Below, piece by piece: positions 2,700-58,227 of a stretch of 64,000 nucleotides of DNA. Positions within the stretch are counted from its first letter, which is position 1, and every line of letters starts with the position of its first letter. Origin of the DNA: Candidatus Limnocylindrales bacterium (GTDB taxonomy: Bacteria; Chloroflexota; Limnocylindria; Limnocylindrales; CSP1-4); NCBI GenBank assembly GCA_038328755.1, contig JBBQMH010000001.1:18422-82421 (forward strand), given 5' to 3'. Position numbers and translations under genes: made by a program. A model generated the notes under the pieces. It did no database searches, was not told the origin of the DNA, and worked only from the letters and a program-made list of their open reading frames with translations.

Positions 2700-2871
2700 G
2701 CGTGCCTCCTCCTTGAGTTGGCCCTTCTTAATCAGTCATTCCCACCGAACGCAATGCCGTCCCGACGGAACGCTCGCAAGTGGGCGCCGCAACATTCCGC
2801 GGCATTGACGGGACCCTTCGTGCCTATCGAGTCCAATAGGCACGGTCTCCTATCCGTCGGTGAGGCACGCC

Positions 2872-3420
2872 TCACAGCTTCGCCACGCTCGAGAACTGGT
2901 CGTTGGCGGCGCCGAGGACGCCGACCGAGGCGGTGCCCCAGTCCCACTTTGTGCCCGTCCTGTTGGGTCCGCTCCACCAGGCTGGGTGGCCGCCATTGAG
3001 CGGGGTGAACGAGCTGATTTTGTTGTCCCAGCCGATGGCGGCCAGATCCGGCTCGGCCAGGTAGGCCTCGAAGCTCGGGCCCGCGAAGTTCGTATCGCGG
3101 TACCAGCGGACGTACGGGCTCAGGAGGGCGGTGGCGGTCGGGTCGAGGGTCGCCGCTTCGATCCCTCCAGCAGCCTGGACTTCTTCCGTGGCCCGCTGCT
3201 CGGCGGTCAGGAAGCAGCGGATGACCGGGTAGTCCCGATCGTGGCAGTAGAGATCGACGATCGCGCCCGGGTCGATCCGCTGGGCCCCGAGATAGACGAC
3301 CGGGGTCACGTCCCTGGCTGGGACGGCCGAGACCGAGGCGGGCAGCCCGCCGGCGGCGAAGACGGCCAGGAGTGTCCATCCGGCGACGAGTTGCGAGCGG
3401 AGTCTCTGTCGTCCAGCCAT
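2872..3420 (-). CDS. hypothetical secreted protein (182 aa)
   Basis: Signal peptide LVAGWTLLAVFAAGGLPASVSA; GGAGG RBS 8 nt upstream; preceded by conserved leader element. Confidence 0.6.
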   Translation of the reverse strand: MAGRQRLRSQLVAGWTLLAVFAAGGLPASVSAVPARDVTPVVYLGAQRIDPGAIVDLYCHDRDYPVIRCFLTAEQRATEEVQAAGGIEAATLDPTATALLSPYVRWYRDTNFAGPSFEAYLAEPDLAAIGWDNKISSFTPLNGGHPAWWSGPNRTGTKWDWGTASVGVLGAANDQFSSVAKL

Positions 3421-3440
3421 CGGCGTGCCTCCAGGGGTCG

Positions 3441-3600
3441 TGGTCTACGGCTCGGTTGACGCCCAACCGCGCAACCAGGGACGCACCACGAGGGTCGCGG
3501 CTGGTGGGTCGGATGGCGAGAGCGTGAATCACGTCAGGCCGCGGCGTGGGATCGCGCCGAGGGCCGGCCGTCCGGGGTCGCATACCCGCTCCCGCACAGA
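3441..3600. repeat. conserved ~160-nt non-coding element, copy A (candidate cis-regulatory RNA leader)
   Basis: ~80-85% identical with indels to 4958-5130; shared blocks ACGCCCAACCGCGCAA, GGCTGGTGGGTCGGATGGCGAG, AATCACGTCAGGCCGCGGCGTGG, CGCCGAGGGCCGGCC. Confidence 0.6.
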
Positions 3601-4120
3601 GGGGTCGACGATCCGGTCTGGCGCGACGCCCTCGACGCCGGGGGCGATCGAGGGCGTACCTCGAGGCCCTTACCGAACTCGACGCCCCTGGTCCGCTCGG
3701 GGACACGCCTCGGGACGCGACCAGTACGTTCGCGAACAACCGCGAGGGGATGCGCTACTGTCGCTCCTTGGCGCTCGGCCTCTTTTTGGCGCTCGGCCTC
3801 TTTGTCGGCTCGGGCGTCGTCGAGGCCGGTCGCGCGACGCTCATCGGCGGACGCCTCAAGCAGTCCGAGATGCGCTGGACGCCGTGCGATGGGCCGAGTC
3901 GATGATCCGGCCGCCGGTGCGCGGGGCAAGAGGGGGCCGGCGAGGACGGGACCCACGCGAACCAGGGAAGCACCAGGGCTTCAAGCGACGTCTTTGGGAC
4001 GCCGGGGCCGAAGCGAGGGCGGCGCCACGGTCCCCACGCCGCCCTCCGCTTGGCCAACGAGCCGCCAGCCGAGGACCTTGACCCCGGACCATCTCGGCGA
4101 TCCAAAACGCGGATCTTGGG

Positions 4121-4222
4121 TCAGCCAGAGACGCTCCTACCAAACAGGCTAAGAACCAAGACCAAGACCAGAAGGCCCAGCAGAACGATGGCGATCCTGG
4201 GCAACCACTCCGTGGCGGTCAT
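4121..4222 (-). CDS. small hydrophobic peptide (33 aa) MTATEWLPRIAIVLLGLLVLVLVLSLFGRSVSG
   Basis: Not in ORF track (too short); ATG 2 nt after stop of upstream gene, preceded by GGAGGAGG SD; single predicted TM helix. Confidence 0.35.
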   Translation of the reverse strand: MTATEWLPRIAIVLLGLLVLVLVLSLFGRSVSG

Positions 4223-4224
4223 GT

Positions 4225-4839
4225 TCAACCTCCTCCGCTTCCGGTGCCACGACCATCAGCGTGTGCTGTCATGTCAAGCCACGGCAGATTGTCCTGATTC
4301 GAGAGGGGGTTTGGTGGGCGATAGCTGAAACTGCCTTGCACGAACGACCGGTAGTATTCGAGGCCTTGTCCTCCCCCAGTAAAGTCCCCGACGAGCCCGT
4401 TGTACGACCACCAAGGATAGTTGAGTGTCGCAGTCACCTGTCGCCAAGGAGTATTCGTGATCCTCGTCCCGTCTCCACACCAATCGATTCGCTGCTTAAA
4501 CGTCCATAGAAGGACACCAATAGGGTTCCTCCCATCACGGCCCCACGTCCAAGTCCAACATGTCACGGCAACAGCGCCCAGGAGGCTAGAGGTCGGACCC
4601 GTGACCCGAGTGACTGGCGACTGCGTGGTCGTGACTGTCGCGAGACTGGTGTAATCCAGGACAGACCGTTGTTCGGCAGGGCTGAGTCGAGCAAATGCCG
4701 CGTTTTGATCGCTAGCTCGGGCAACGACGTCCGTCAGGCGTGCAGCGTCCCGCGTAGGATTCGCGGCCGCCACTGGCCCGACCACCCCAATGGTCATCAG
4801 AACGGACACGAGGAACGTGGCAACGATCTGAATGCGCAT
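4225..4839 (-). CDS. hypothetical secreted Trp-rich protein (204 aa)
   Basis: Signal peptide MRIQIVATFLVSVLMTIGVVGPVAAA; W-rich mature region (TCWTWTWG, NYPWWSY). Confidence 0.6.
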   Translation of the reverse strand: MRIQIVATFLVSVLMTIGVVGPVAAANPTRDAARLTDVVARASDQNAAFARLSPAEQRSVLDYTSLATVTTTQSPVTRVTGPTSSLLGAVAVTCWTWTWGRDGRNPIGVLLWTFKQRIDWCGDGTRITNTPWRQVTATLNYPWWSYNGLVGDFTGGGQGLEYYRSFVQGSFSYRPPNPLSNQDNLPWLDMTAHADGRGTGSGGG

Positions 4840-4957
4840 TTCTGTCCCCAGCTTTGTTCGTGTTGCTGTTGAGGTCTTGTCCTATACCAACCGATCTTCT
4901 CGACTTGGTCTGCACCTACTCCCACTGCCCGTTCATCCAGACATCGCGGTGGCCCCA

Positions 4958-5130
4958 GGTCGTGGTTTGCGGATCCGGGTACGCCCAACCGCGCAATGAG
5001 GGACGCACCACCAAGGGTGGCGGCTGGTGGGTCGGATGGCGAGGCCGGAAATCACGTCAGGCCGCGGCGTGGAATCACGCCGAGGGCCGGCCATCTCGGG
5101 ACGGGCATCGCTCTCCGCAGAGTGGGGCGG
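4958..5130. repeat. conserved ~160-nt non-coding element, copy B
   Basis: Paralogous to 3441-3600; lies between secreted-protein gene (minus) and histidine kinase gene (plus). Confidence 0.6.
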
Positions 5131-5181
5131 CGAGGCCACCAAGTATGATCACTGCGTGTTCGCATCCAGGGGACGGTCAGG

Positions 5182-6621
5182 GTGACTTCGGCGTCGCGGG
5201 TCGGTTCGATCGGCGGGGCGCGTTCCGCATCCACCGCGTTCGTCGTCGCCCTCGCCATCGACCTCGTTGCGCTCATGGCCCTGGGCTGGCTGGTCGTGGT
5301 CGGCACCCCGGCCATCGATGTCGGTTTCGCCCCTCAGCCTGACGATCGATGGCTCGTCACATCCGTCGCTCCGGGAGGCGTCGCCTGGAACAACGGGATC
5401 CGGCCCGGCATGGAGGTCGTCGGGGTCAGTCCTGGCGACGCGCTCCCGTCGGGCGAATGGACGTCCGTGCTCGTCACCGATGGGGCGGTCCGGATCACCA
5501 TCCAGCGCCACGACCTGCCGCCCGGTCCGGAGCTGTTGGTCGCCGGCATCGTCGCCCTCGGGCTGGCGATCCTTGCCTTCCGCCCCGTACCGTCCGTGGC
5601 CTGGTGGCTTGCCCTTGCGCCAGCGATCGTCACGTCGCTCACTGGCGCACTGATCGTGGATCCGCCGCTCAATCTGGCGTTCGAGCTTGGAGGGCCCCTC
5701 ATCGGCGCGCTCTACGTGGTGGCGGCAGCTCGCCCCGTGGCGCGGAACGCGCGGTGGATCGTTCTCGGGACCGGCGCCGCGTTCCTCCTTGTCTGGGGCG
5801 TGTCGTATGTCACCGCAGGAGAGGACTGGCGCATCCTTCGCGACCTGTCGGTTGCCGTCAGCCTCGCCCTGGCCGCGGTGGCGCTGGGAGTGACCGTCCG
5901 GTCGGCGTTCGCGCGAGCTCGGGCGCGGACGGGGACGGGGACGCCACTGTCCACGCTATCGCCCGTGGCCGCGCTGGGACTCGTCGTCGACGAACTCGTC
6001 CCCGGTCGAAGCAGAACGCGGGTGACCGCCATCGAGCGCGAGCGCGCCCGCCTGGCGACCGAGCTCCACGCCGACGTCCTGCCGGACCTGTCTGCCGTGA
6101 TCCGGTCAATCGAGGAAGGTGCCTCAGGTGAACAGGCAGCCGAGAGACTGCGCGGCATCGCTGCCGAACTGCGAGACCTGATGGCCGAACGGCGGCTGAG
6201 CGTCCTGGAACAGCTCGGGCTTGTTCCCGCTCTGGAATGGCTCGTCGAGCAGGTGGAGGGGCGGACAGGCGTCCGCGTCGAGCTCGACGTGGAAGGCGCC
6301 AGCGTCGATTGGGAAGCACGGCCGCCGCGCGACGTTGAGTTGACGGCCTACCGGGTCTGCCAGCAGGCACTCGACAACGCGCTGCTGCACGCCCGGCCGA
6401 CCAGCATTCGCGTGCGGCTCGATGTGGACGCGGGTCACGCTGAGCTCGAGGTCAGCGATAACGGCGTCGGCATCCGATCCGGAGACGAGGAGCGGGCGCT
6501 CCGGTCCGGCCACCTCGGCCTGGGCGACATGCGTCAACGGGCGGCCGCGATCGGGGCCGCTCTCCACATCGGCCCGCGGCAAGACGGGGGAACGATGGTG
6601 CTGCTGCGCTGGCCGGCATGA
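5182..6621 (+). CDS. sensor histidine kinase, NarL/HisKA_3 type, multi-TM with PDZ-like extracytoplasmic segment
   Basis: TM helices; ERERARLATELHADV H-box; C-terminal HATPase (LDNALLHARP, SDNGVGI, GLGLGDM). Confidence 0.8.
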   Translation: MTSASRVGSIGGARSASTAFVVALAIDLVALMALGWLVVVGTPAIDVGFAPQPDDRWLVTSVAPGGVAWNNGIRPGMEVVGVSPGDALPSGEWTSVLVTDGAVRITIQRHDLPPGPELLVAGIVALGLAILAFRPVPSVAWWLALAPAIVTSLTGALIVDPPLNLAFELGGPLIGALYVVAAARPVARNARWIVLGTGAAFLLVWGVSYVTAGEDWRILRDLSVAVSLALAAVALGVTVRSAFARARARTGTGTPLSTLSPVAALGLVVDELVPGRSRTRVTAIERERARLATELHADVLPDLSAVIRSIEEGASGEQAAERLRGIAAELRDLMAERRLSVLEQLGLVPALEWLVEQVEGRTGVRVELDVEGASVDWEARPPRDVELTAYRVCQQALDNALLHARPTSIRVRLDVDAGHAELEVSDNGVGIRSGDEERALRSGHLGLGDMRQRAAAIGAALHIGPRQDGGTMVLLRWPA

Positions 6622-7232
6622 TCCGCGTGCTCATCGCCGACGACCATCCGTCGACCGCCATGGGCCTCGGCCAGCTGCTCGGTCGCGAGCGCGACCTCGA
6701 TGTGGTCGGCCTGGCCGAGGACGTCGAGGGTGCCCTGACGCTCGCTCGTAGCCTGGCGCCGGATCTGGTCCTCTGCGACATTCAGCTCCAGGGCGAGGCC
6801 GGCGGCTTCGAGATCCTGCGACGACTCGAGCGCGAGAACCCGCCCCCGGTGCTCCTCTTCAGCTCGTTCGACTACCCGGCCTTCCAGCAACGGGCGCTCG
6901 AGCTTGGCGCCCGCGGGTATCTCCTGAAGACGAGCAGCGTCCGAGAGATCGTGGCCGCGATTCGCCATGTCGCGGGGGGCGGCTCGGCCTTCATGGCGAT
7001 GGCATCTCGGGGCAAGGCCACCGAGCCTCGGGCGCCATCCGAGCGGGAGCTCGCGCTCATTCGACTCGTCCGGTCGGGTTTCACCAACGACGAGGCGGGG
7101 GTCCGGCTCGGGATGGGCACTCGCGGCGTGGAGAGCTCGCTCCGACGGCTGTTCCAGCGCTACGGGACCTTGAGCAGGACGGAACTCGTGACCTACGCTG
7201 AAGGGCAGGGTTGGCTCGCACTCGATCCGTAA
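6618..7232 (+). CDS. response regulator, NarL/LuxR family
   Basis: REC domain (IRVLIADDHP...LCDIQL) plus C-terminal LuxR HTH; ATGA overlap with kinase. Confidence 0.9.
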   Translation: MIRVLIADDHPSTAMGLGQLLGRERDLDVVGLAEDVEGALTLARSLAPDLVLCDIQLQGEAGGFEILRRLERENPPPVLLFSSFDYPAFQQRALELGARGYLLKTSSVREIVAAIRHVAGGGSAFMAMASRGKATEPRAPSERELALIRLVRSGFTNDEAGVRLGMGTRGVESSLRRLFQRYGTLSRTELVTYAEGQGWLALDP

Positions 7233-7481: not shown

Positions 7482-7513
7482 ATAGCGGGATTCCCCGCGA
7501 CGTTATAGCGGGA
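7482..7513 (+). promoter_or_regulatory. ATAGCGGGA direct repeats 2 and 3, spaced 23 nt centre-to-centre
   Basis: gATAGCGGGAtt...tATAGCGGGAaa ~105 nt upstream of the secreted-protein gene. Confidence 0.4.
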
Positions 7514-7642
7514 AATCATCGCTCGACAGGCTGGTCGCCGGGGGTCAACCTCCCAGCGAGACAACGACGCGAGACGGCCGATGCGCCTTCCGGAGCGCCG
7601 GCTGTTTCAGCTGACCTCGTGGACGACTGGAGGATTGCGGGA

Positions 7643-8062
7643 ATGCACAGGAAATACACCGGTGTTGTGGCTGGATTGCTGCTTTCGATCCTCACCGTCG
7701 GAACGGCGCTTGCGGAGGGGTCCTGGGATTCCTACATCATCAACGCGCACCGCTCCTTCGACTCCCGGACCTGGACGGACCGGGACATAGATGCCAACGC
7801 CACGACAATCAGGTTCGACACCTGCCGGGACGAGAACACGACGAACGGCAGCGATGACTGGGCGAAGGTTTCGTTGCAGAGGATGCGCTTGTTCTTGCCG
7901 GCGGAGAATCGCGGGCAGAAGACCCTCTTCTGCTGGGTGAGTGCTACCGGCGACTGGGGCCGACAACCAGCATCGGACTACCAGTTCCAGCTCGATGACT
8001 ACAGCGGTGGCACGGACAGCTGGAACGTGTTCGACGTCGGTTTCCTCAGAGTATCGTACTGA
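7643..8062 (+). CDS. small secreted protein (139 aa), hypothetical
   Basis: GGAGG RBS; signal peptide MHRKYTGVVAGLLLSILTVGTALA; lower GC. Confidence 0.6.
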   Translation: MHRKYTGVVAGLLLSILTVGTALAEGSWDSYIINAHRSFDSRTWTDRDIDANATTIRFDTCRDENTTNGSDDWAKVSLQRMRLFLPAENRGQKTLFCWVSATGDWGRQPASDYQFQLDDYSGGTDSWNVFDVGFLRVSY

Positions 8063-8810: not shown

Positions 8811-10084
8811 TGCCGATCAGGTCGGTGCTCCGAGTGAGCGCGGGCTCGTGGCTGGCGCTCCCGATCATCCTGCTCGCAGCCCTGTTCTCGCTGGCGCATC
8901 AACCGGCGACGGCCGATCCCTACGCGATCGCACGCTCGGCGGCCGGCACCATCACGCTTGCCTTCGTGGCCCCGATCTGCGCCGCCCTCGGAGCATGGGA
9001 AGGAGCGCGGTTTCGTCGGGCGGCCTGGTGGGCCCTGCCGCACGTCCGATCGCGGGCCGCGATCGCGGCCTGGTCCACGGCACCGGTCATCCTGGCGGGA
9101 TCGATCGCGGTCGCGGTCGCGTCGATCGTCCAGCTCACGCGCGCCGGGTTGTTCGTCCCGGACGCCCGGCTGCTTGCGTTGACCGTGGCCGTGATCTCGG
9201 CGCACACGCTGCTGGGATTCGCAGCCGGCCTCTGGGTGCCGGTCGTCATCGCCGCGCCGGCGGCGCTCATCCTGTCGTTCCTGTGGATGGCGTTTCCGGC
9301 CGCGATGGATCCCCTCTGGCTGCGCCATCTCAACGGCAGCCTGTCAACCTGCTGCGGGCTCCAACAGGATCTCGCGCCCGCGGCAGTGATAGCGGCTTTC
9401 CTCGTTGCTGCCGGCATGGTCGCAGCGGCATTCCTGCTGGTCACACAGCAGGCATGGAGTTGGGTCCGGGGTGCGCTGTCAGTCGTGCCCCTCGCCATCG
9501 CCGTCGCCGCCGGCTCGGTGATCGCGAGCCCACTCGGACCCGACCCGGCGGTCGCCCGTGACGCGTCAGCCCTCGTCTGCGCGACCGATCGTTCTGGTGT
9601 GGAGGTCTGCGTCTGGCGTGAGCACGCGGGTCGGCTTGGCGAGGTGCTCGGAATCGCGGCAGACGCCGTGGCCGCCTGGGATGCGTCCGGGATCCCGACA
9701 CCGCGGCGGTTCACCGAACTGGAGCCCGCGAGCCGTAGCGAGCGCGCGTTCGGGTTCAGTCTCGAATCGACGAAAGCCGACATCGTGGGCTCGCTCGCCT
9801 ACAGCATCCTTCCGCCGTGGCCGTCATGTGCGAACGCGGGGCCGTACCCGTCGGCCCGTGTGCTCGACGAGCTCTACGCGTGGTTTGCCGCCGTCGGAGG
9901 CATGTCCGAGCGCGATCTTGTTCGGCGGTTCGACGTGGCAGCCCCGCCCGGGAGCCAGACTCCGCTCGCTGTCGTCCGCGCGCTCCGGTCCCGACCACCG
10001 GCGGTGCAGCGCCAGTGGGTGAACGGCAATCTCGAGGCGACGCGCAATTGTCTCGACACGCCAGTGGACGTGCCCGACGCTTGA
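8810..10084 (+). CDS. polytopic membrane protein, putative ABC-2-type permease partner (424 aa)
   Basis: ATG overlaps ATPase stop (TGATG); many hydrophobic helices. Confidence 0.55.
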   Translation: MPIRSVLRVSAGSWLALPIILLAALFSLAHQPATADPYAIARSAAGTITLAFVAPICAALGAWEGARFRRAAWWALPHVRSRAAIAAWSTAPVILAGSIAVAVASIVQLTRAGLFVPDARLLALTVAVISAHTLLGFAAGLWVPVVIAAPAALILSFLWMAFPAAMDPLWLRHLNGSLSTCCGLQQDLAPAAVIAAFLVAAGMVAAAFLLVTQQAWSWVRGALSVVPLAIAVAAGSVIASPLGPDPAVARDASALVCATDRSGVEVCVWREHAGRLGEVLGIAADAVAAWDASGIPTPRRFTELEPASRSERAFGFSLESTKADIVGSLAYSILPPWPSCANAGPYPSARVLDELYAWFAAVGGMSERDLVRRFDVAAPPGSQTPLAVVRALRSRPPAVQRQWVNGNLEATRNCLDTPVDVPDA

Positions 10085-20129: not shown

Positions 20130-20300
20130 TTGCGCGGGCGCGGAGTCCGCGGACGCCCGGTTCAGCATGTGCGGGCGCGCCGGGCTCATGGGCGGGCGCG
20201 CCGGGCCGCCGCGGGACGCCGGGCTCATGTGCGGGCGCGCCGGGCTCATGGGCGGGCGCGGGGCTCATGCGCGGGCGCCGCATCGAGCAGGGTCGGCGCT
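20130..20300. repeat. GC-rich tandem repeat array (~5 units of ~20-21 nt, GCGGGCGCGCCGGGCTCATGG-like)
   Basis: Degenerate contiguous units, no spacers. Confidence 0.7.
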
Positions 20301-21180: not shown

Positions 21181-21300
21181 TACTCACCTCGCGGTTATGG
21201 GGAAGTTCGCGGACCCGCGCCCCGCGCCCCGCGGACCCGCGCCCCGCGCCCCGCGGACCCGCGCCCCCGCGCCCCGCGGACCCGCGCCCCGCGCCACCAG
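21181..21300. repeat. GC-rich tandem repeat array (~4 units of ~22 nt, GACCCGCGCCCCGCGCCCCGCG-like)
   Basis: Roughly reverse-complement in character to the 20130-20300 array, so the two bracket the regulator gene. Confidence 0.7.
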
Positions 21301-33540: not shown

Positions 33541-35832
33541 GTGCTGGCTCATCGCGGAACCGACGCCGTCCGCCTGACCCGCCGCGAGGCTGGCCGGCTG
33601 GCGATCGCAGCCATTGCCCTGATCGTGGCAATGACGGCGATCCTCGGCGCCGATTTTTCGCCCAAGCGAGTCGACCTGCAGGTGGGGGACCTCGTCCCGG
33701 CCGATATCGTCGCCCCGCGCGCCCTGACCTACGAGAACACTGTTCTGACCGAGCAGGCTCGCCAGGCGGCGATCGACAGCGTCCCGCCCCAGTACGACTT
33801 TACGACTGAACGTGCGATCACGATCGCATCCGTTCAGGCCCAGACGTTCGCTGACAAGGTCAACCCGCTCGACGCGGCATTCGACCCCTCGACACCCGCC
33901 GTCGACCGCAGCGCCACCATCGAGGGATTCGCCGTGGCACTCTCTCCTGGTTCGGCGAATGCCCTTCGATCGCTCGATCTCGTGCGCTGGATCCCCATCC
34001 GGACCGAGGCGGCACGGGTGCTCGACAGCACGGAGCGCAGCGAGCTCAGGGATACCGAGGTTGCCGTCACGCAGTCGAGGCTGTCCGAACAGATGGCGGG
34101 TGGCCTGTCGGAGGCGGAGCGCATGCTCGCTGCGGAGCTGATCGCGCCACTCATCGTCCCGAACAGTTCCTTCAGTGCGGAACTGACTCAGCAGGAGCAG
34201 GACCGCCGCGCGGCAGAGGTTTCGCCCGTAACCGAGTCGTACCTGCCGCGCGAAATCCTCGTCCGCGGCGGAACCAAGTTGACGATTTCGGACGCCGCCG
34301 TCCTGGCCGCCTTCGGACTCGACAATGCCACGACCGATTTCGCCCAGCTGGCTGGCTGGTTCGTGCTGAGTGCCCTCCTGGTCGCGCTCCTGCTCGGCTG
34401 GATCTGGCGCTTCCGCCGGAGCTTCTGGCACCGCACCAACGTCCTGCTCCTGATCGGACTGCTGCTCCTGTTTGCGACGTTTGCGCTGCAGCTCACGGCG
34501 GGCCGGGCCGCACTGCCGTTTGTTCTCCCGCTGGCGGCCATTCCAGTGCTTGTCGCCGTCCTCCTCGACGCGGAGGTGGCAATCGTCCTGGCGGCGCTGG
34601 TCGCCGTCGTCGCCGGCGCCGTGAACGGTCCGTCCCTCGAGCTCGCGGCGTACGTTTTTCTGGGCGGCCTGGCGGGTGTGCTCGGCGTCCGGCGCGGGGA
34701 TCGCCTCCAGACGTTCCTGCAGGCCGGTGCCGTGGCATTCGTGGTCCAGGCGCTCGTCGTCACGGCCTTCTCGCTGCTCGGTGAACGGGACGTGACCGGG
34801 ACCGTCCAGCTGGTCGCTGCAGCTGGCATCAGTGCCGGTGGCGCGGCGGTCGTGGCGGTCGGGACGTTCGCGGTCCTGGGCAACGTCTTCGGGATCCTGA
34901 CGGTCTTCCAGCTCCTCGAACTGGCGAATCCGTCCCAGCCACTCCTTCGCCGACTGCTGATCGAGACGCCTGGCACGTATCACCACTCGCTGATGGTCGG
35001 GAACCTCGCCGAGCGCGCGGCAGAGGCGGTCGGCGCTGATCCGCTGCTGACCCGCGTCGCGGCCTACTACCACGACCTCGGGAAGCTCAACAACCCCGCT
35101 GGCTTCATCGAGAACCAGGCCGGCGGAGAGAACCTCCATGATCAGTTGACACCCGAGGAGTCGTCCCAGGTGCTGAAGGCGCACGTCGCGGATGGCATCA
35201 ACATCGCCTACGAGGGCCGCCTGCCAAAGGCGCTCATCGCGTTCATCCCACAGCACCACGGGACCGCTTCGATCAGCTACTTCTATGCCAAGGCTCGAGA
35301 GGAAGCCGCAGCGCCGTACGGCGGAGTGGAGACCGAAACCGGGGGAAAGGCGGCCGATACCGTCGATATCCGGAAGTACCGACACTCGGGACCGAAGCCG
35401 CAGTCCCGCGAGGCGGCGATCATCATGCTGGCCGATGGGGTCGAGGCGTCCGTGCGATCGCTGTCATCGCGCGACGAGGTCGCGATCCGCGGCATGGTTT
35501 CCCGGATCATCGCCGACCGGATGTCCGACGGGCAGTTCGACGAATGCGACCTGACGTTCCGCGACCTGGATCGGGTTCAGGAGGCCTTTGTCCAGCAACT
35601 CCTCGGCATGTACCACCAGCGGGTCGCCTACCCACAGAGCAAGGTGGTGGAGCAGGAGGCGCGGCGCGCTGCTGCCGCCGCGGCCGGTATCGACGGCACC
35701 GCCGCGGCGAAGGCGGGCGACGGCACCGCCGCGGCGAAGGCCGGCGAAGGCGACCCCGCGGCGAAGGCGGGCGAAGGCGACCCCGTCGCGAAGGCGGGCG
35801 AAGGCGACCCCGCGGCCCAGGGCAAAGGGTGA
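33541..35832 (+). CDS. pgpH: 7TM receptor HD phosphohydrolase (PgpH-like c-di-AMP phosphodiesterase)
   Basis: N-terminal extracytoplasmic domain, 7 TM, HD domain (YHHSLMVGNLAERAAE, YYHDLGK); C-terminal (AKAGEGDP)n repeats. Confidence 0.9.
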   Translation: MLAHRGTDAVRLTRREAGRLAIAAIALIVAMTAILGADFSPKRVDLQVGDLVPADIVAPRALTYENTVLTEQARQAAIDSVPPQYDFTTERAITIASVQAQTFADKVNPLDAAFDPSTPAVDRSATIEGFAVALSPGSANALRSLDLVRWIPIRTEAARVLDSTERSELRDTEVAVTQSRLSEQMAGGLSEAERMLAAELIAPLIVPNSSFSAELTQQEQDRRAAEVSPVTESYLPREILVRGGTKLTISDAAVLAAFGLDNATTDFAQLAGWFVLSALLVALLLGWIWRFRRSFWHRTNVLLLIGLLLLFATFALQLTAGRAALPFVLPLAAIPVLVAVLLDAEVAIVLAALVAVVAGAVNGPSLELAAYVFLGGLAGVLGVRRGDRLQTFLQAGAVAFVVQALVVTAFSLLGERDVTGTVQLVAAAGISAGGAAVVAVGTFAVLGNVFGILTVFQLLELANPSQPLLRRLLIETPGTYHHSLMVGNLAERAAEAVGADPLLTRVAAYYHDLGKLNNPAGFIENQAGGENLHDQLTPEESSQVLKAHVADGINIAYEGRLPKALIAFIPQHHGTASISYFYAKAREEAAAPYGGVETETGGKAADTVDIRKYRHSGPKPQSREAAIIMLADGVEASVRSLSSRDEVAIRGMVSRIIADRMSDGQFDECDLTFRDLDRVQEAFVQQLLGMYHQRVAYPQSKVVEQEARRAAAAAAGIDGTAAAKAGDGTAAAKAGEGDPAAKAGEGDPVAKAGEGDPAAQGKG

Positions 35833-57937: not shown

Positions 57938-58227
57938 GGGGGGCGCTTATCGGGCACTCACTCGACTACGGGCGCCCGGTGGTACGCTTCGATCGACCGC
58001 AATTTGCGGTTCGCCGAACAGTCGCGAAGCCGGTGTGATTCCGGCACAGTCCCGCTACGGTGATCGTCGCTCAGGCGACGTAAGTCCGGTCGCCGACGCT
58101 CGGTGGATGCACGACCTTCGAGAGAAAGGGTGGCTCCACACATGATCCCGACCGACTGACCGGCGGCGCGTCCCCACGACCCGCGAACCCTGCGTTCGCC
58201 CACCCCCCCGGTCGGAGACCCGCTCCC

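Follow-up and report, generated by a model that had tools for sequence, protein, structure and literature searches.

A probable divergent promoter/operator, duplicated upstream of secreted-protein genes in an uncultured Chloroflexota genome

The stretch of DNA analysed here (64 kb, called the window below) comes from an uncultured member of the Chloroflexota with a 68% GC genome, and carries two copies, A and B, of a non-coding element of about 200 nucleotides (nt). Each lies upstream of a minus-strand gene for a predicted secreted protein (gene 1 for copy A, gene 2 for copy B), and copy B also adjoins a divergent operon for a sensor histidine kinase and a response regulator. The element is probably a bidirectional promoter/operator that depends on this response regulator, was duplicated along with the expansion of a gene family, and works at the level of DNA rather than RNA. 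It is conserved in sequence, in synteny and in the architecture of its motifs, and gives no signal of RNA structure.

A first-pass annotation of this DNA, made from the sequence, had described two similar intergenic segments with indels that destroy any common reading frame, and the alignments agree. Copies A (~3406-3611) and B (~4930-5133) have a mean column identity of 84% over about 200 columns (MAFFT, window sequences), rising to 89% in the core, with one 1-nt and one 2-nt indel, both frame-breaking; blastn gives 81% identity over 200 nt (E = 1e-46). The homology is slightly longer than first noted, taking in the start codon of gene 1 in copy A and a matching stub in copy B. The 22- and 23-mers common to the two copies occur nowhere else in the 64 kb (0 expected from shuffles), and a repeat search of the window reported the A/B pair alone. 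The placement relative to minus-strand genes is also as described: copy A abuts gene 1, and copy B ends ~95-120 nt ahead of the gene 2 start. The two downstream proteins, said to be non-homologous, indeed have no BLASTP similarity to each other; both have N-termini that, read from the sequence, look like signal peptides. The main features are:

3406..3611, minus strand: copy A of the putative control region, aligned with copy B (nhmmer match 3474-3561, E = 1e-16); directly upstream of gene 1
4930..5133, minus strand: copy B of the putative control region, aligned with copy A (nhmmer match 4995-5085, E = 4e-18); between the kinase gene (5182, plus strand) and gene 2
2872..3420, minus strand: gene 1, predicted secreted protein of 182 aa, with a weak Peptidase-inhibitor-I36 match; its family is usually preceded by the element
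4225..4839, minus strand: gene 2, predicted secreted protein of 204 aa, now downstream of copy B; its homolog in related loci L003 and L004 is just downstream of gene 1
5182..6621, plus strand: sensor histidine kinase, catalytic region NarX/LiaS/VraS-like
6618..7232, plus strand: response regulator, receiver plus LuxR/GerE helix-turn-helix domain (nearest solved relatives DesR, VraR, and NarL); candidate binder of the repeats

Related loci (numbered with an L) were taken from contigs with gene 1 homologs, supplemented by a gene 1 profile search of genome and metagenome contigs (12 and 13 loci). The homologs come only from Chloroflexota and Candidatus Limnocylindrales metagenome-assembled genomes (MAGs). 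An nhmmer model built from eight copies of the element gives 28 distinct copies in 321 kb of these loci plus the window; all are at one type of locus and in the same orientation relative to the downstream open reading frame (ORF). Most stand before a gene 1 paralog, whose ATG follows the end of the model by 28-54 nt. The other downstream ORFs are likewise small and secreted or membrane-bound (gene 2 in the window, a 72-aa SHOCT-like protein in L006, and 165- and 207-aa signal-peptide ORFs in L028), so that the reported association with secreted- or membrane-protein genes extends to the relatives. Five loci (L006, L011, L016, L024, and L028) have two or three copies each. The kinase, the regulator and gene 1 are conserved neighbours in ~15 independent loci, and 15 copies of the element, in independent loci, share this adjacency to the kinase and the LuxR-type regulator. 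In L002, L003, L007, L008, and L009 the element is the sole sequence (~190 nt) between gene 1 and the divergent kinase operon. The public call for the L002 kinase gene (754-2313, 519 aa) starts inside the element. Its alignment to the window kinase begins at L002 position 2187, and the first ~40 codons are probably an over-extension, being unconserved in either sequence or frame.

The anatomy of the element was read from an alignment of 26 copies (A4), taken in the gene 1 sense. The blocks are, in order, a distal site (TGRCGTGATTCCACGCC), 8 variable bases, a proximal site (GGCGTGATYYCnSGCC) and, abutting it, a hexamer TTGCAT; then a spacer of 16-17 nt, a hexamer GACAnT, GGTGGTG, GCGTCCC, a variable leader, GAGG, and the ATG. 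Both sites contain the 11-mer GRCGTGATYYC, making a direct repeat whose two starts lie 24 nt apart, or 23 nt in copies A and B. The distal site usually forms a 6-4-6 palindrome too, and a 16-bp form, GGCGTG-ATTC-CACGCC, is frequent around the repeats; the imperfect palindromes pointed out by the first-pass annotation are present in the copies (CGTGAATCACG-type). Within the repeats, G, C, G, G, and A/T are invariant or almost so; T89 and G91 of TTGCAT are nearly invariant; and A113 and T117 of GACAnT are invariant in all 26, which is the pattern that positions 2 and 6 of a -10 hexamer should show. G125 and C126 of GCGTCCC, ~7 nt past the -10-like hexamer, are also invariant. Conservation thus comes as contiguous blocks of sequence, and such sequence-level conservation, of direct repeats and promoter-like hexamers, is what would be expected for DNA bound by proteins. 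In A and B alike, the invariant positions of the repeats and the -10-like hexamer are all intact. The parts of the two copies are:

3543..3558, no strand assigned: copy A distal 16-bp site GGCGTGGGATCGCGCC, putative regulator site (motif alignment)
3520..3535, no strand assigned: copy A proximal site, GACGTGATTCACGCTC on the minus strand; centre 23 bp from that of the distal site
3514..3519, minus strand: copy A putative -35-like hexamer TCGCCA (family TTGCAT)
3491..3496, minus strand: copy A putative -10-like hexamer GACCCT (family GACAnT), 17 nt past the -35-like hexamer
3478..3484, minus strand: copy A GCGTCCC block, just past the -10-like hexamer; candidate transcript start or discriminator
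3428..3433, minus strand: ribosome-binding site of gene 1, TGGAGG (from the sequence)
5066..5081, no strand assigned: copy B distal site GGCGTGGAATCACGCC, a perfect 6-4-6 palindrome (motif alignment)
5043..5058, no strand assigned: copy B proximal site, GACGTGATTTCCGGCC on the minus strand; left half intact, right half decayed
5037..5042, minus strand: copy B -35-like hexamer TCGCCA (motif alignment)
5014..5019, minus strand: copy B -10-like hexamer CACCCT (motif alignment)
5000..5006, minus strand: copy B GCGTCCC block (motif alignment)
4933..4944, minus strand: gene 1 start stub in copy B, ATG TCT GGA TGA, homologous to ATG GCT GGA CGA of gene 1

On the other side of the element, a hexamer TAnnAT (mostly TATGAT) stands on the opposite strand at a fixed offset from the distal site in 15 of 15 kinase-adjacent copies. 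This distance is 62 nt in copy B, as against 38-42 nt in most lineages and 17-20 nt in the L007 group; the copy B sequence is:

5144..5149, plus strand: TATGAT, -10-like hexamer of the kinase operon, 62 nt from the copy B distal site

Copies away from the kinase lack this hexamer in 10 of 11 cases, and the one that has it, L016g1, arose by a recent duplication that took in the kinase-side flank; copy A has lost its kinase-side -10. With hexamers on both sides, a single pair of sites is phased with promoter-like sequences on both strands. If transcription starts ~7 nt past the hexamers, the centre of the proximal site would fall at about -42 relative to the gene 1 start, and that of the distal site at about -60 relative to the start of the kinase operon, both typical positions for an activator.

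From this arrangement we infer that the regulator binds the element, that it activates rather than represses, and where the transcripts begin. The ancestral state would be a single ~190-bp region between the NarL/LuxR-type kinase-regulator operon and a divergent gene 1 encoding a secreted protein of ~180 aa. An envelope signal would activate the kinase, which would phosphorylate the regulator; phosphorylated dimers would then occupy both repeats, switching on the secreted-protein gene and also, in copies that adjoin it, the divergent kinase operon. On the gene 1 side, the proximal site would abut the weak -35 (TTGCAT), ~42 bp upstream of the presumed start, with GACAnT as the -10. On the kinase side, the position of the distal site near -60 means that the regulator would also control its own operon. 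Since every invariant position is kept, both window copies probably function, copy A in expressing gene 1 and copy B in expressing gene 2 as well as the kinase operon.

The first-pass annotation had instead taken the segments to suggest a structured leader. On that reading the element would be a cis-regulatory RNA (riboswitch-like or protein-binding) co-transcribed with the secreted-protein genes. The constant orientation and the 28-54 nt to the downstream start codon would suit such a leader, as would palindromes able to form hairpins, including the long perfect ones of L008/L031 and L017 described below. The structure searches give it no help. In Rfam 15, the whole window at gathering score has a cobalamin riboswitch alone, with nothing on the element, and a permissive scan of 3300-5300 finds only chance-level matches outside it. 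Single-sequence folds of A and B on both strands have z-scores of -0.97 to +0.70 against dinucleotide shuffles. For A4, the RNAalifold consensus energy is only -5.96 kcal/mol when read towards gene 1 and -7.6 when read towards the kinase, and the covariation term is 0.04; covariation across related genomes, which the first-pass annotation had proposed looking for, is thus close to zero in 26 copies. Over the three obvious helices, 4 pairs have changed on both sides, compared with 3.8 in shuffles.

The palindromes themselves decay on one side. In the distal one, pair 49-63 is unpaired in 13 of 26 copies, and in the proximal one pairs 76-85 and 77-84 are unpaired in 15 of 26; the right halves degenerate, while the left half-sites stay constant throughout. 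Wobble-type substitutions favour neither strand in A4. What is conserved is primary sequence, not pairing. The best -10-like hexamer lies downstream of the repeats, which speaks against their being transcribed (no proof on its own), and the same element serves the kinase promoter on the opposite strand at a fixed offset. The nearest thing to a helix is a short GGTGGT/ACCACC stem near the presumed gene 1 start, which in the gene 1 sense is 82% paired, includes some G-U, and has compensatory changes at two of its pairs; it is not significant, and is not kept in the L007/L012/L016 group. Without an Rfam match, folding beyond the level of shuffles, or covariation, and with the one-sided decay of the palindromes, the RNA leader is quite improbable.

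A second possibility is that the element is a promoter/operator read by some other factor, a transcription factor or alternative sigma factor, and that its linkage to the two-component system is incidental. Copies precede gene 1 paralogs in L005 and L010, with no LuxR-type regulator on either contig, and from this it follows that another factor could bind the repeats. In L010 (9903-9990), an element-like pair of sites, with a CACTGT -10-like hexamer and a GCGTCC block, is upstream of a gene 1 paralog. The two-component system beside it belongs to the OmpR rather than the LuxR type, and the MAG's LuxR-type system lies on a separate contig (L015/L016). This lack of linkage within one MAG fits a trans-acting factor, and in that respect speaks for the regulator-dependent reading. 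The GCGTCCC block includes CGTC, a common core of -10 elements for extracytoplasmic function (ECF) sigma factors. Set against these points, no AAC-type -35 stands 16-17 nt from CGTC, and GACAnT and GCGTCCC are separated by anything between 0 and 10 nt. In synteny, the sole conserved DNA-binding candidate is the kinase-regulator pair, and the distal site is in phase with the -10 of the kinase itself. Another factor seems unlikely. Reading GCGTCCC as part of an ECF-type or sigma-54-type promoter was also tried by eye and rejected, as there is no matching -35/-24 element at the right spacing.

Several other points weigh against a regulator-dependent divergent promoter. Linkage to gene 1 is partly by construction, because the loci were retrieved through gene 1. 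A generic sigma-70 and terminator scan of 2800-5400 found no promoter and no terminator, and the -35-like hexamers are weak. The GTGGTGCGTCCC block past the -10-like hexamer is strongly conserved in a way that a plain promoter does not account for, and its distance from GACAnT varies in distant loci. Variable columns of the alignment have a weak 3-nt periodicity (p = 0.058). There is also the short stem just described, and in L008 (~9893-9953), L031 (~840-900), and L017 (~3890-3930) there are near-perfect palindromes with arms of 16-18 bp (e.g., GCGCCCTGGTCAAGGCGT-N6-ACGCCTTGACCAGGGCGC), longer than a single dimer site needs. As a separate observation, the right arm of these long palindromes gives a good TTGACC -35. 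There is a small chance that the GTGGTG-GCGTCCC part with its GGTGGT/ACCACC stem, or the L008/L031/L017 palindromes, represent a conserved 5′-leader RNA in addition to the DNA operator. If so, a regulon of secreted proteins specific to Limnocylindria would come under post-transcriptional control as well.

As a third possibility, one or both window copies might be functionless remnants of a recent segmental duplication, alike from youth rather than from selection. A and B are indeed each other's nearest relatives (89% in the core, compared with ~70% to L002, the closest other genome) and share lineage-specific traits such as the 23-nt spacing, which together indicate that the duplication is recent or has been homogenised within the lineage. 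Copy B carries a dead gene 1 stub, and the loss of the kinase-side -10 from copy A could be read in the same way. Youth does not explain why loci with gene 1 proteins of only 44-65% identity share these conserved blocks, or why the invariant repeat and -10-like positions are intact in both window copies, and this explanation is very improbable.

The earlier statement that this is not a simple gene duplication is half right, as copy B keeps the first codons of gene 1 (ATG TCT GGA TGA, 4944 to 4933). These codons indicate that the copying took in a module with gene 1 as well as the element. In the simplest scenario, a unit of element, gene 1 and gene 2 would have been duplicated in tandem and then reduced by reciprocal deletions, giving the arrangement kinase <- B -> (gene 1 stub) gene 2 ... 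A -> gene 1. Copy B would have remained beside the kinase, with its gene 1 reduced to three codons, and copy A would precede the intact gene 1. Similar duplications, with other boundaries, are found in L006, L011, L016, L024, and L028, and repeated copying of the module has gone together with gene 1 paralogs.

The presence of several copies per locus could also suggest a mobile dispersed repeat of the kind of a miniature inverted-repeat transposable element (MITE), and the marginal periodicity mentioned above could suggest a short coding or leader-peptide ORF. There are just two copies in 64 kb, at one type of locus and in one orientation, with neither terminal inverted repeats nor target duplications, and no match in plasmid and phage collections. 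A coding function was considered and rejected: each of the six frames has stop codons in between 4 and all 26 of the copies, and lineages differ by frame-shifting indels. With no frame open across all copies, the first-pass description of a conserved, duplicated, non-coding element stands, and a mobile repeat or peptide is barely credible.

Returning to the divergent promoter/operator, its closest parallels among known systems are operators of NarL/FixJ-family regulators. In Firmicutes, LiaR and CesR bind motifs built on a 16-bp inverted repeat (PMC4447274). The LiaR/CesR/VraR systems, which belong to cell-envelope stress, resemble this one in combining such a regulator with a 16-bp inverted repeat upstream of target promoters, small membrane or secreted targets beside the system, and apparent autoregulation of the regulator operon. 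They differ in that their motif, TCAGHCTnnAGDCTGA, is unrelated to GGCGTGATTCCACGCC, and that here there are two direct-repeat sites 24 bp apart, the host belongs to the Chloroflexota, and binding is predicted only. No LiaF-like gene is found among the called genes of the window and the fetched loci. By NCBIfam, the kinase falls outside the strict LiaFSR/VraSR group (LiaS, 34.5 bits against a cut-off of 450), and the best families for the regulator (MadR, MctR, and NarL) are all far below their cut-offs.

The NarL/NarP heptamers and the DesR sites of the des promoter offer a second comparison. These are multiple short half-sites, inverted or direct, bound by dimers of GerE-type helix-turn-helix proteins at class I/II-like positions. 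The element here would share the several short half-sites, the GerE-type regulator and, by the positions proposed above, the class I/II-like placement; half-site sequence and spacing differ, and one pair of sites seemingly serves two divergent promoters. Leader RNAs such as the ydaO (cyclic di-AMP) riboswitch of Actinobacteria are similar in being conserved non-coding blocks before exported-protein genes in a high-GC genome, but the element here has no covariance-model match or covariation, and is upstream of the likely -10. A literature search on two-component systems of Limnocylindria found no papers.

Two distant loci bear on the identity of the binding protein. In L015 and L017 the 24-nt direct repeat is kept, with GCGGGA as both half-sites, and the recognition helix of the regulators is different (TRGVESSLRR rather than EKSVESHLRR). 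This change in both half-site and helix fits co-evolution, as seen in one lineage.

A relaxed two-half-site pattern has 22 matches in 282 kb (~1 expected), of which 19 are in known copies. The remaining three are the L010 site, a chance-like match, and one in the window just after the regulator gene:

7484..7517, plus strand: possible third operator pair, AGCGGGATTCCCCGCG ... ATAGCGGGAAATC, repeated at 23 nt and ~125 nt ahead of a 139-aa signal-peptide ORF (ATG at 7643)

It consists of a 14-bp palindrome, GCGGGATTCCCCGC, with a repeat, ATAGCGGGA, 23 nt downstream. In a position-weight-matrix scan of the window, the two known pairs alone are above background and this one is not significant; it may be a further operator.

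If the divergent promoter reading is correct, it would define an operator motif, two GRCGTGATYYC copies 24 bp apart, together with a small regulon, for a NarL-type system of uncultured Chloroflexota that is so far uncharacterised. The regulon would comprise the gene 1 paralogs, gene 2, the system's own operon, and possibly the 139-aa secreted ORF at 7643. This would aid annotation of these MAGs, and give an example of promoter modules spreading with gene-family expansion. General understanding would be unchanged, as autoregulated divergent promoters with regulator-binding repeats are textbook material. The chief practical value is negative: the locus need not be followed as a new riboswitch or leader RNA.

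The ATPase domain is the sole Pfam match in the kinase (5182-6621). Its residues ~55-110 form a predicted extracytoplasmic loop (…VTSVAPGGVAWNNGIRPGMEVVGV…) with the look of a PDZ-like or beta-rich sensor. An AlphaFold2 model of the gene 1 protein, made from a 24-sequence alignment, has a mean predicted local distance difference test (pLDDT) score of 43 and is unusable. Directly after gene 2 there is one more small ORF:

4121..4222, minus strand: ORF for a 33-aa single-pass membrane protein, starting 3 nt past the gene 2 stop, with its own GGAGG site

Homologs of this ORF were not found in the other loci. No gene is called in the ~510 nt between copy A and the 33-aa ORF (3612-4120), none of the fetched loci has a homolog of this stretch, and its long GC-rich ORFs have no Pfam match. 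Comparing 3590-4230, 4835-4960, and 2690-2875 with all loci by blastn and tblastx gave no real homology, the tblastx matches being GC-rich noise.

Elsewhere in the window, the cobalamin riboswitch aptamer (RF00174) lies at 57980-58115 on the plus strand, with a score of 34.3 bits against a gathering score of 31.5. Short GC-rich tandem repeats, probably within coding regions, are found at 35664-35821 (period 27 nt), 20166-20275 (period ~21-39 nt), and 21220-21295 (period ~22-23 nt).

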